Origin: Scenedesmus sp. PABB004
Lineage: Eukaryota
DNA length: 64,000 bases
Assembly: GCA_014905635.1 (NCBI GenBank)
Contig: JABVCE010000005.1
Span: forward strand, 620,001-684,000
Direction of reading: 5' to 3'
Part shown: positions 2,484 through 53,791 of the stretch, in pieces
Layout: each line of letters begins with the position of its first letter
Numbering within the stretch: position 1 is the first letter of the stretch
Notes under the pieces: model-generated
Told to the model about the DNA's origin: nothing
Database searches by the model: none
What the model saw: the letters and a program-made list of their open reading frames with translations, nothing else
Made by a program: the position numbers and the translations under genes

Positions 2484-5400
2484 TCAGCGCTTCTCCTTCT
2501 TGGTGAGCCAGAGGAAGCCGGCGTACGTGAGGAGGTGGAGGAAGGCGAGGTATCCGACAAGGATGACCACGGTCTGCCAGAAGGGCCGGAAGAGGTCGAA
2601 GTAAGAGAGGATGCTCCCCAGCTCCACGCGGCACGTCGGGCCGGGGTTGTTGACCTGCACGGGCGGGGCGGCGGCAGCGTGGCGGGAGGGCCGGGTGGGG
2701 AGGGAGGGCGCGGGCGGCGGGCGCGGCGCAGGCGCAGGCGCGGCGCGGCGGTGCAGGTGGCGCGCGGCGGGGGCGCGCCTGGTTGAGCACGAGCGGGCTG
2801 GTGATGGCGGGCGTGTTGGGCAGGAACTCTGGGAGGAACGCGACGATCGACGGCGCGAGCCCGCCCGCGCACGAGTAGGACACGCCCCCAAACTCGGCCT
2901 GCGCGTAGCCGTCAAAGGCGAAGCCCATGGCCGAGATGTACCTGCGCGCGTGCGCAGGTGGCGGGCAGGGCGCGCGCGCGCGCGGCGCAGTGAGAGGGGC
3001 AGGATGGGGGAGGGAGAGGGCGGGAGAGGGCAGCGGGGCGCGTGCCGGCTGCGTGTGCGGCGGCGCCGCCCGCGCCGCCGCACCGCAGCTGGCTGAACCA
3101 GGCCTGGCTCATGTCCTGGTAGCGGACCATGAAGTTGGACATTAGCAGGTTGACCGCGGTCCAGCCGATGGCCAGCATGAACGCGACGTCCTGGTTGGGC
3201 GTCACGACCGCCGCAAACGCGAGCACCTGGCGGCAGACACGACGCGGCGCGAGGGTTGGCGGGCGTGGTGTGAGCGTTGGCGGGGCGCGGGGCGAGGGCG
3301 TGACGCGCGGTCGCATGGTCGCACCCACGCACACCAACAACACACGCCTCGCACACCCCGCGCCGCCCAGCGCGCGCAGCCCACAGCGCGCGCAGCCCAC
3401 AGCGCGCGCAGCCCACAGCGCGCGCAGCCCACAGCGCGCGCAGCCCACAGCGCGCGCAGCACAGCTCGCGCAGCCTACAGCACGCGCAGCACGGCCCGGC
3501 GCCGGCGTGGCACACGCACCTGCGCGGCGATGAGGTAGATCAGCACGCTCATGAGGCCGTTCATGCCGACCGCGGCGCCGCTGTGGCGCAGGCCGGCGAG
3601 GCCGTAGAGGGTGTAGCTGAAGAGAAGGACGTTGAGCACCGCAAACGGCGCGACCGCGAGCTGCTTGGCGACGTAGTACGCCGACGGGTGGTAGAGCTTG
3701 GCGCTGCTGTCGGCGATGTAGTACTGCTTGTCCGAGGTAAAGAGGGACATGTAAACATAAGGCAGCAGCAGCAGGATGACCGGCTCGACGAACAGCACGT
3801 TGAGGCGCGCGCGCAGCGCGTCGACGGCGCTCGGGAGGTTGTAGTATATGAGGCCGACAAAGACGGCGAGCCAGCAGAAGATGAGGCAGCGCCCCGCGAC
3901 GTCGGCGGGGTTGCGCGTCACCGCGAGCAGCTCGCGCCAGAGCAGGATCCTGCGGGCGGCGGGCGCGGCGCGCGGCGCGGGGCGCGCGGGGGGGGGGGGG
4001 GGGGGAGGGGCGCGGCGCGCGTGAGGCGCGTGAGGCAGGCAGGGGGAGAGGAGGGCGGGGGAGGGGCGGGCGGGGCGGGCGGAGGGGCGCGCGCGCGGCG
4101 GCGGGGGCGGGGCCACGCGCGGCGCGGGGCGCACGCGGGTGCAGGCGCGGGCGCGCACCTGAACTGCGAGAACCAGGTCGCCGACGTCGGCGGCGGGCGC
4201 GGCGCGCCGCCGAGGCCGCACAGCCCGCCGCGCACGGCGCCGCCGCCCTCGCCGCGCTCCTCCACCGCGTCCAGCACCTTGTGCATCGCCGCGGCCTGCC
4301 CGCCTGCTCGCGGGGTCGCGGCGCGCGCGCGCGCGGGCGCGGGCGTGCCGCAGGGTCAGCCAGCGCGGGGCAGGGCCGGGCGAGGCGCCGGCGCGGGGCG
4401 CGCGCGTGCGCGCGCTTGCGCGGCCGCACCGTTGCCGGCGTCGCCGGCGCGCTGCGCGTCGTCGCTGCGCGCGGCGGCCGCGGCGGCGGCCGCCCCGGGG
4501 CCGCTGGGCGGCAGCGCGGCGAGGTAGCGCTTGCGGAAGGCGTCTGCGTGTGTGGTGAGCTCGTCCAGGGAGTTCATCATGCGCCCAAACAGCGACTGGG
4601 GGCGGGGAGAGGGGGAGGGATGGAGGCAGGGCGGGAGGGAGGGAGGGACGGGTTGAGTCAGTCACGCACGTGCGCGCGCGCACACCCACACGCACGCGCG
4701 CACACACGACACACACAACGCACACACGCGCGCGCGCACCTCTGGCTTCTTGAACCCGATGTTCACCAGGTCCATGACCCAGTCGCTGGCGAGGCCGTGC
4801 AGGGCGGGGTCGTAGGGGTAGCCGCGCCCCACAAACCAGGGGACCATGGCCTCGCGCGGCCCAAAGTACATGAGGTGGCCCATGCTCAGCAGCACCGCCT
4901 GAGCGCGCGCGGGGCGCGGGGCGAGTGAACGAGCGCGGGCGAGTGAGCGAGCGCGGGGCGAGTGAGTGAGCGAGCGCGGGGCGGGTGGGCGTGCGCGCGC
5001 GCGCGGGCGTGCCGGCGGCGCGACGGCGCGGCAGGGCCGAGCGAGCGCGGCAGGGCGGCGGCGCGCGGGCGAGGGCCGGGCGGGCGCGGCGCAGTTGTGC
5101 CGGCGGCGCTGTGTGGGCGCGGCGCGGGCGCACCGTGTCAAAGAGCGCCCAGATCGCGGCGCGGGGCTGGTGGATGCTCGACACGACCGTCTGCCCGCCC
5201 GCGGCCATGGAGCGCATGTAGCTCATCACGCTCAGCGCGGCAAAGGAGTCGAGCCCGCTCGTCGGCTCGTCCAGGAAGACCACGCACGGCGTGGACATGA
5301 TGCCTGCGCGGCGGCGGGGTGCGGCGCGGCGGCGCGGAGTGGGGCGGCGGCGCGACGCGACGTGGGGCGTGGGCGGCGGCGGGGCGGCGCGGAGGGGAGG

Positions 5401-52200: not shown

Positions 52201-53791
52201 TCGGCTACCCCGCGCGCGCGATCCTGCCCTACTGCCAGGCGCTGTCGAAGCTCGCGCCGCACATCCAGCAGGTCTCGATGGAGTCCAACGGCAAGGGCGT
52301 CGACATCAACGGCTCGGTGCTGCCGTTTGAGGCGGGCGAGATCGACTTTGGCGAGCCCGGCACCAACGGGCAGCACTCCTTCTACCAGCTCATACACCAG
52401 GTGCGGGTGTGGGTGTGTGTGGTGTGGGTGTGTGGGTGTGGGTGTGGGTGTGGGTGTGGGCACGGGTGTGTGGGCGGGAGGAGAGGCGCAGCGGCGGCGC
52501 ATCACGCTTGTTGTCTGTCACAGCCTGCCGGCGCGCAGAAAGCGGTCGCGGCCGCCCGCGGCGCCGCCGCGAGGCCGGGCGTCACCGAGCCTGCCCCTCC
52601 CCCGCCTCCTCCCCCGCGCCGCCAGGGTCGCGTCGTGCCGTGCGACTTCATCGGCATCGTGCGCAGCCAGCAGTCGGTCTACCTCAAGGTGCGCGGCGCT
52701 GCTGCGCGGCGGCGGGGTCGCGCGCGCAGCGCGGCGCAGCGTCGGCTCGGCCCGGCGCGCGCCCCGGCCCCCTCGGCCGGCGCAGCGGCGCCGCAGACCC
52801 GCGCCGAGCCGCCACTCACGCCGCCGCCGCCGCCGCCGCCGCGTCTGCCGCGTCTTGCCGCCCAGGACGAGATCGTGTCCAACCACGACGAGCTGATGTG
52901 CAACTTCTTTGCGCAGGCCGACGCGCTCGCGTACGGCAAGTCGCGCGAGGAGCTGCGCAGCCAGAACGTGCCTGACTACCTCATCCCACACAGGCGCGTG
53001 CCGCTGGCTGCGTTGTTGTTCTGTTGTTGTTCTGTCGCTCGCGCGGGGCTGCGCGCAGCTCGCAGCCCGAGGCGAGGCCCGCGCCGCGCGGCGCGCCGAC
53101 ACTGCACTCCGTTGGGCCCCGCCGCGCAGGTCGTTCACGGGCAACCGGCCGAGCACGAGCCTGCTGCTGCCGGAGCTGACCGCGTACACCGTGGGCCAGC
53201 TGCTGTCGCTCTACGAGCACCAGGTCGCGGTGCAGGTGCGCCCCTCCCGCGCCGCAGCAGAGCGCGCGGCCGCGCCGCCTGCGCAGCGCACGCGCTGCGG
53301 CGGCGCCCCGCAGCAGCGTGCGCGCGCCGCGCCGCGCCGCGCCGACCGCGCGGCGCGCACCGCGCGCGTGCGCAGGGCTTTGTGTGGAACATCAACAGCT
53401 TTGACCAGTGGGGCGTCGAGCTCGGCAAGGTGCTCGCGAGCAAGGTGCGGCAGATGATCAACGCGAGCCGCAACAAGCACCGCTTTGTCAACAACAGCGA
53501 CGGCTTCAACTACAGCACCACCCGCCTGCTCAACAAGTACCTGCAGGCACGCGCGCACGGGCGCGCGGCGCGCCGCAGCGGCGGCGGGTGCCCGCCGCCT
53601 GCACACAGACAAGCGCGCAGCGGCCGCGGCGGCGCCGGCGAGCAGGGAGCCCGCGCGCGCGCGCGCGCACGCGCGCGCGAGTGGCTCACCCGCGCGCCGC
53701 GCCGCGCGCCGCGCAGGGCAAGACGCAGCTGCTGTACCCGGAGCCGCGCGACGTGTTCCCCGCGGAGCTGCTGGAGCACCGGCCGTTCTGA
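49294..53791 (+). CDS. PGI: Glucose-6-phosphate isomerase, cytosolic-type sequence with two upstream transit-peptide exons, 15 exons (core starts 49994)
   Basis: [85 protein letters not shown] and [13 protein letters not shown]. Upstream exons 49294-49436 and 49643-49709 splice in frame. Confidence 0.95.
52405..52472. repeat. (GGGTGT)n-like repeat in a PGI intron
   Basis: Directly visible. Confidence 0.8.

Follow-up and report, generated by a model that had tools for sequence, protein, structure and literature searches.

GC-AG introns in a window of the Scenedesmus sp. PABB004 genome

The window analysed here, a whole stretch of 64,000 nt from Scenedesmus sp. PABB004 (contig JABVCE010000005.1, positions 620,001 to 684,000), carries many introns whose 5' splice site, or donor, reads GC instead of GT. 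We consider it probable (about 0.7) that these are genuine spliceosomal (U2-type) GC-AG introns, which appear to have become very common in this alga through GC pressure together with compensation by an AG at the end of the upstream exon. An earlier reading of the letters alone (the sequence-only reading) had proposed 21 GC donors between window positions 2778 and 53547, and its coordinates and motifs proved exact: all 21 sites read AG/GC (the slash marks the exon-intron boundary), 19 of them continue as GCGCG, and the other two are GCGAG (11323) and GCACG (53547). Support for the 21 sites is strong at 12, moderate at two (35372 and 6171) and weak at seven.

The genome of this strain is listed at 39.8 Mb, 78.5% GC and 7,092 genes (PMC12571836), and the composition of the window (76-83% G+C across the whole 64 kb, with an N count of 0) agrees with that figure. 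The closest protein matches of the window genes come from green algae of the Sphaeropleales, and two public proteins, P0121 (CDC5 [Scenedesmus sp. PABB004]) and P0234 (elp4 [Scenedesmus sp. PABB004]), are 100% identical to the window. Over both strands the dinucleotide GC occurs 27,524 times and GT 4,532 times. Since GC is thus about six times commoner than GT, the sequence alone is no proof of GC donors, and independent evidence on the junctions was therefore sought.

Homology evidence for GC donors

A custom protein-to-DNA spliced aligner was supplied with the allowed donor dinucleotides (GT or GC) and an AG acceptor, and was blind to the flanking sequence. Its queries were homologues from other species, up to 10 per gene, for five genes. 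From homology alone the aligner selected 12 of the 21 claimed GC donors, in the genes for glucose-6-phosphate isomerase (PGI), CDC5, ELP4, PDH E1 beta and a Brix-domain protein. At all 12 sites, exact excision of the intron gives a gapless junction and a continuous conserved frame, and every one of the 12 donors follows an AG. Sliding the boundaries by 1-2 nt leaves the mRNA unchanged, and the sole placement with an AG acceptor is GC..AG. In addition, nine of the 12 introns have a length that is not a multiple of three, so that their excision is needed to keep the frame. The 12 strongly supported introns are as follows.

18476..18605 (+), GC-AG intron, Brix-domain (Rpf2-like) gene; strong, 6/6 homologues, gapless junction
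18726..18836 (+), GC-AG intron, Brix-domain gene; strong, 6/6 homologues
18960..19087 (+), GC-AG intron, Brix-domain gene; strong, donor in 5/6 homologues, acceptor at 19087 in three and at 19090 in two
24203..24369 (+), GC-AG intron, Myb region of CDC5/CEF1; strong, 9/10 homologues, required for the 100% match to P0121
25448..25624 (+), GC-AG intron, CDC5; strong, 10/10 homologues, consistent with P0121
26770..26906 (+), GC-AG intron, CDC5; strong to moderate, 6/10 homologues in a poorly conserved stretch, required for P0121
30597..30720 (-), GC-AG intron, ELP4 (PAXNEB); strong, 2/3 independent homologues, required for P0234
42539..42666 (+), GC-AG intron, PDH E1 beta; strong, 5/5 cyanobacterial orthologues, AFNQ/ISNN gapless
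43188..43316 (+), GC-AG intron, PDH E1 beta; strong, 5/5 cyanobacterial orthologues, EKAE/MVREG gapless
50470..50608 (+), GC-AG intron, PGI; strong, 9/10 homologues
52994..53129 (+), GC-AG intron, PGI; strong, 10/10 homologues, flanking exons about 98% identical to P0003
53547..53716 (+), GC-AG intron with donor cag/GCACGCG, PGI; strong, 10/10 homologues

Restricting the gene models to GT donors lowered the score of each gene by 56 to 141 units and introduced indels. The use of nearby GT donors, which would have removed the need for GC donors, was checked at the 12 strong sites, and the GT-only models there either drop conserved residues or gain inserts. For example, in the PDH E1 beta gene the GT-only model loses 15 conserved residues at 42539 and retains a 43-residue in-frame insert at 43188. 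The test set for this gene consisted of five intronless cyanobacterial orthologues, which replaced Pfam profile coordinates because the latter were too imprecise across the junction. In the PGI gene, which has 13 introns, the three GC junctions are gapless against the Tetradesmus protein, with flanking exons up to 100% identical, and the GT-only models produce a deletion of two residues and inserts of six and 19 residues; the deletion arises at 50470, where an in-frame GT (acc/GTCAAGG) lies 6 nt upstream and its use removes two aligned residues. The public annotation points the same way. The 100% identity of P0121 and P0234 to the window depends on GC donors (24203, 25448 and 26770 for the former, 30720 for the latter), and the end-to-end alignment of P0121 to the CDC5 gene, which has 11 introns, is mismatch-free only with its three GC donors. 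In ELP4 the third homologue prefers a GC at 30714, 6 nt downstream of 30720.

As a control, each of 15 other dinucleotides was allowed in turn as the second donor beside GT. The gain obtained with GC was the largest in every gene and summed to 506; the runners-up were CG (384) and CA (279), and GA gained 181.

The exonic AG and the donor motif

Motif statistics were taken from the 40 homology-defined introns of the five checked genes, 12 with GC and 28 with GT donors. The strict AG/GC rule of the sequence-only reading is borne out by these introns: AG precedes 12/12 GC donors and 13/28 GT donors (Fisher p=0.0011). The accompanying claim that GT donors tolerate other exon ends also agrees with the counts, as 15 of the 28 lack a preceding AG. 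Nearly all donors of either class have a G at -1 (27/28 of those with GT). On the intron side the classes are similar, with G at +3 in 11/12 GC and 26/28 GT donors, C at +4 in 12/12 and 22/28, and G at +5 in 12/12 and 27/28. Outside +2, GC donors therefore adhere more closely to the consensus than GT donors do, as expected of compensation. The mismatch at +4 to standard U1 had been stressed as a mark of the GC donors; it is not peculiar to them, because GT donors here also read GTGCG.

In the five transcribed spans, 118 of the 2977 GC dinucleotides (4.0%) follow an AG. The motif AG/GCGCG occurs 19 times in these spans, comprising 11 donors, five unused exonic and three unused intronic sites, and GGCGCG without the preceding A occurs 99 times with no donor among them. 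The AG/GC rule is not a by-product of how the sites were searched. At the other end of the intron, a G follows the acceptor AG in 31 of the 40 introns. No GA donor was found among the 40. The extended donor of U12-type introns reads [AG]TATCCTT, and all 21 proposed donors instead read GCGCG, GCGAG or GCACG.

Moderate and weak candidates

An ab initio model, a small Viterbi gene finder, was trained on the five checked genes, with a donor matrix built from GT donors only and a prior for C at +2 fixed at 0.2. Run without an intron penalty it grossly over-split the genes (815 introns); with a penalty of 30 it recovered 38 of the 40 training introns and predicted 143 introns, 39 of them GC. Twenty of the 21 claimed sites were used in the whole-window run, and 11323 was used only when its gene region was run alone. 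As an estimator of GC frequency the finder was rejected, since its predictions include false GC calls.

Two sites outside the strong set have moderate support.

35372..35496 (+), GC-AG intron, Sel1-repeat gene; moderate, from the register of internal Sel1 repeats
6077..6171 (-), GC-AG intron with donor aag/GCGCGCC, ABCG gene; moderate, ab initio delta 14.9 bits

For the first of these, 68 donor/acceptor pairs within 60 nt that keep the frame and contain no stop were compared by how well the junction peptide matches a further Sel1 repeat elsewhere in the encoded protein. The proposed pair gave the top ungapped match (58, the next being 37); gapped local alignment did not discriminate between the pairs, and the ungapped version did. 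At 6171, an alignment to human ABCG1 (PDB) begins one residue past the proposed acceptor, and a weak in-frame GT alternative (cc/GTGCTCA) lies 9 nt upstream.

The remaining seven candidates were called by the ab initio gene finder.

2655..2778 (-), candidate GC-AG intron with donor cag/GCGCGCC, ABCG half-transporter gene; weak, ab initio only, delta 13.6 bits
11323..11414 (+), candidate GC-AG intron with donor cag/GCGAGCC, after exon 1 of the alpha/beta-hydrolase gene; weak
28457..28565 (-), candidate GC-AG intron, unnamed gene downstream of ELP4; weak, ab initio only, delta 6.1 bits
28646..28793 (-), candidate GC-AG intron, unnamed gene downstream of ELP4; weak, ab initio only, delta 7.1 bits
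38898..39025 (+), candidate GC-AG intron, unnamed gene at 37597-41506; weak, ab initio only, delta 13.0 bits
39785..39900 (+), candidate GC-AG intron, unnamed gene at 37597-41506; weak, ab initio only, delta 7.5 bits
47054..47204 (-), candidate GC-AG intron, MFS transporter gene; weak to moderate, donor ab initio only, delta 8.1 bits

At 11323 an open reading frame (ORF) from the ATG at 11166 runs in frame to the donor, as judged by eye, and the upstream exon is therefore not one of 7 nt. When the donor at 39785 is forbidden, the model switches to another GC donor and not to GT. The multi-exon gene at 37597-41506 (+) may encode a sulfatase-like product, to judge from motifs in the predicted protein; its single ORFs, including those flanking 38898, have no Pfam, NCBIfam or PDB match, probably because the exons are short. 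In the MFS transporter gene, the profile matches to TIGR00893 and TIGR02332 start exactly at the new exon, and the acceptor of the 47204 intron is therefore supported. Among 11 flanking ORFs searched against NCBIfam only this downstream MFS ORF matched, and PDB searches of the ORFs flanking 47204, 38898 and 2778 gave no match.

The candidates at 28565 and 28793 conflict with public P0234, which has a single GT intron there (28836..28457) and skips the exon between them. P0234 is annotated as elp4 with 727 aa at 28185-31855 (-), and the ELP4 homologues of three other organisms stop near 30300. The public model thus looks like a fusion, in which a second, unnamed gene at about 28185-29880 would supply the last ~300 residues.

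Pairs of a GT donor and an AG/GC donor in the same frame, 6-12 nt apart, were observed at 9455/9467 (+), 6180/6171 (-), 2790/2778 (-), 50464/50470 (+) and 38892/38898 (+). At 2778 the GT of the pair is weak (tc/GTGCTCA, 12 nt upstream), and at 38898 it reads cc/GTAGAGG, 6 nt upstream. These five close pairs could be alternative 5' splice sites yielding protein variants that differ by 2-4 residues.

Frequency and origin of the GC donors

In the five checked genes, GC introns make up 12 of 40 (30%; 95% confidence interval (CI) 17-47%). The sequence-only reading had counted 21 of about 133 (~16%, CI 10-23%), a figure whose denominator is that reader's own manual count. Its claim that GC-AG introns lie far above the usual ~1% agrees with the share in the checked genes. 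For comparison, GC-AG introns are given as ~1.2% in plants (PMC6310983) and, across kingdoms, as typically ~1% and below 2%, with a fungus at 6.67% major non-canonical sites as the most extreme case named there (PMC7072748); for the green alga Volvox, 1-2% non-canonical introns are stated (PMC4378016).

We suggest that this abundance may have arisen as follows. In a genome of 78.5% GC, strong AT-to-GC substitution pressure would turn donor position +2 from T to C, and the C would survive only where A-2, G-1, G+1 and G+5 still pair sufficiently with U1, U5 and U6. Because survival needs compensating pairing elsewhere in the site, GC donors could not do without the AG and GT donors could, and the spliceosome itself would be essentially ordinary. 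The high frequency of GC donors fits an AT-to-GC substitution bias at +2, and splice-site GC content is described as rising with genomic GC content (PMC7072748). The AG requirement of GC donors is in line with recognition that leans more heavily on the exon. When complementarity was scored as matches to the consensus of the standard U1 5' end, GC donors reached 5.29; GT donors reached 5.40 if they lack the AG and 6.00 if they have it. GC donors with AG are thus about equal to GT donors without AG; the lost pair at +2 is offset because the pair at -2 is required, and therefore ordinary compensation would suffice.

Several observations weigh against this account. In the dinucleotide control, dinucleotides other than GC also gain substantially, since a cut anywhere nearby takes out the bulk of the intron; the gain in score therefore discriminates poorly by itself, and the real evidence for the GC donors is the gapless junctions, not the scores. 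Seven of the 21 sites (2778, 11323, 28565, 28793, 38898, 39785 and 47204) have ab initio support only, and the same gene finder wrongly called GC donors at 9467 and 10216, two places at which GT fits the protein family better by eye. The share of 30% is drawn from genes that were picked for carrying claimed sites. The ordinary spliceosome is itself an assumption. Finally, position +4 across the 40 donors is C in 34, A in five and G in one, although the window contains C and G in equal measure; such a preference for C over G goes beyond GC pressure alone and hints at base-specific recognition.

The last point bears on the proposal of the sequence-only reading that 5' splice-site recognition has shifted in this lineage, through variant U1 or U6 or through exon-side factors, so that GYGCG would be cognate, C at +2 near-neutral, and GC-AG a second near-cognate class. 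The two donor classes do share a non-standard intron side (G+3, C+4, G+5), the GC share in the checked genes is very high, and the strong bias at +4 suggests base-specific recognition, not drift. However, C at +2 is clearly not neutral, since GC donors need the AG and GT donors do not, which is classical compensation, and the AG already equalises complementarity to standard U1. The exon-side weighting contained in that proposal fits the AG requirement, and the idea of a GC-specific mismatch at +4 is not supported, given the C at +4 in most GT donors. A variant small nuclear RNA (snRNA) is not needed to explain the data, and the +4 preference keeps a shift in recognition alive as an unlikely but serious candidate. 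Rfam and tRNA scans of the 64 kb window gave no hit and no snRNA gene.

It might also be supposed that the GC donors are artefacts, either because nearby GT donors are really used or because assembly or base calling has systematically put a C at +2. The ab initio model does over-call GC donors, and 2778, 6171, 38898 and 50470 each have a weak in-frame GT donor 6-12 nt upstream; at the 12 strong sites, however, the GT-only models lose conserved residues or add inserts, and independent annotators used four of the GC donors (24203, 25448, 26770 and 30720). A systematic miscall of the context is unlikely because the heptamer with T, AGGTGCG, is intact at 11 validated donors and three exonic sites. 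We regard an artefact as highly improbable. Still less credible is the retention of the GC segments in the mRNA, or the editing of C to U before splicing. Stop codons are so rare here that several introns read through: the introns at 43188-43316 (129 nt) and 18726-18836 (111 nt) are in frame without stops, and a single 934-aa ORF at 51027-53828 (+) crosses six PGI exons plus the intervening introns. This makes ORF-based gene calling misleading in the window and would permit retention, but the frame requires excision of nine of the 12 strong introns, and the read-through peptides are runs of Arg, Ala and Pro that are absent from every homologue. We know of no nuclear C-to-U editing of splice sites in green algae.

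Gene content of the window

All 557 stop-to-stop ORFs of at least 60 aa in the window were scanned against Pfam, which revealed eukaryotic genes in pieces on both strands. The genes identified in this way encode the following.

ABCG transporter; Rieske oxygenase; alpha/beta hydrolase; class-3 lipase
Brix protein; RRM+PWI protein; CDC5/CEF1; ELP4; B9 protein
Sel1-repeat protein; PDH E1 beta; MFS transporter; glucose-6-phosphate isomerase (PGI)
dual-specificity phosphatase; UPF0220 protein; isocitrate/isopropylmalate dehydrogenase

Two splicing-factor genes stand head to head, one for the RRM+PWI protein at 19675-23238 (-), whose product is RBM25-like as judged by its domains, and one for CDC5/CEF1 at 23566-27890 (+). 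With respect to the GC introns this arrangement is probably a coincidence. A long CAG/CAGCAG run lies at 42290-42365 (+), within intron 2 of the PDH E1 beta gene.

Comparison with known systems

The introns described here share with the ordinary U2-type GC-AG introns of animals, plants and fungi the GC donor, the AG acceptor and the compensating stronger consensus elsewhere in the site. They differ in frequency, making up 16-30% of the window introns (the lower value being the count of the sequence-only reading) instead of ~1%, and in the intron side of the donor, which is GCGCG, that is, the local GTGCG with C at +2, and not the GCAAGT of ordinary GC donors.

The closest known parallel is found in dinoflagellates and not in green algae. 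In Symbiodinium, GC donors are reported to be nearly as frequent as GT, GA is also used, and the 5' signal is weak (PMC4083563); it belongs to the only lineage that we found in which GC is nearly as much used as GT. The large share of GC donors and the frequent G after the acceptor AG are common to Symbiodinium and the alga studied here. In contrast to the GA donors and weak 5' signal of the dinoflagellate, the donor motif of this green alga is strong and GA donors are absent from the 40 introns; a relaxed donor of the dinoflagellate type is likewise not apparent in the dinucleotide control, where the gain with GA was far below that with GC. Many GA-AG introns are also described in the copepod Eurytemora affinis and the tunicate Oikopleura dioica, for which a variant U1 isoform has been proposed (PMC7072748). 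These cases resemble ours in a lineage-wide relaxation at donor position +2, and the U1-variant explanation is akin to the one suggested by the sequence-only reading; they differ in that the organisms are animals, the dinucleotide is GA and not GC, and there is no tie to extreme GC content.

In the literature, supplements aside, we found no description of frequent GC-AG introns in PABB004 or in other green algae. At least four of the introns are implicit in the public annotation, so that the sequence facts are already in databases, unremarked. A metagenome scan with the Tetradesmus PGI as query returned 80 loci, in which the full-length matches span ~1.5-1.8 kb; from this span they were taken as uninterrupted genes, and none was usable for intron comparison.

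Implications

Each of the five checked genes contains one to three GC introns, and gene predictors that accept no donor but GT would get roughly every second gene here wrong. More generally, the genome of this alga may serve as a natural experiment in which mutation or conversion bias acts against a near-invariant splice signal, with the exonic AG as the compensating contact. If recognition of the 5' splice site had indeed shifted, the alga would document the co-evolution of snRNAs and splice sites under genome-wide GC pressure in a photosynthetic eukaryote. As a public assembly and annotation are reported to exist (PMC12571836), such co-evolution could be tested directly and cheaply.

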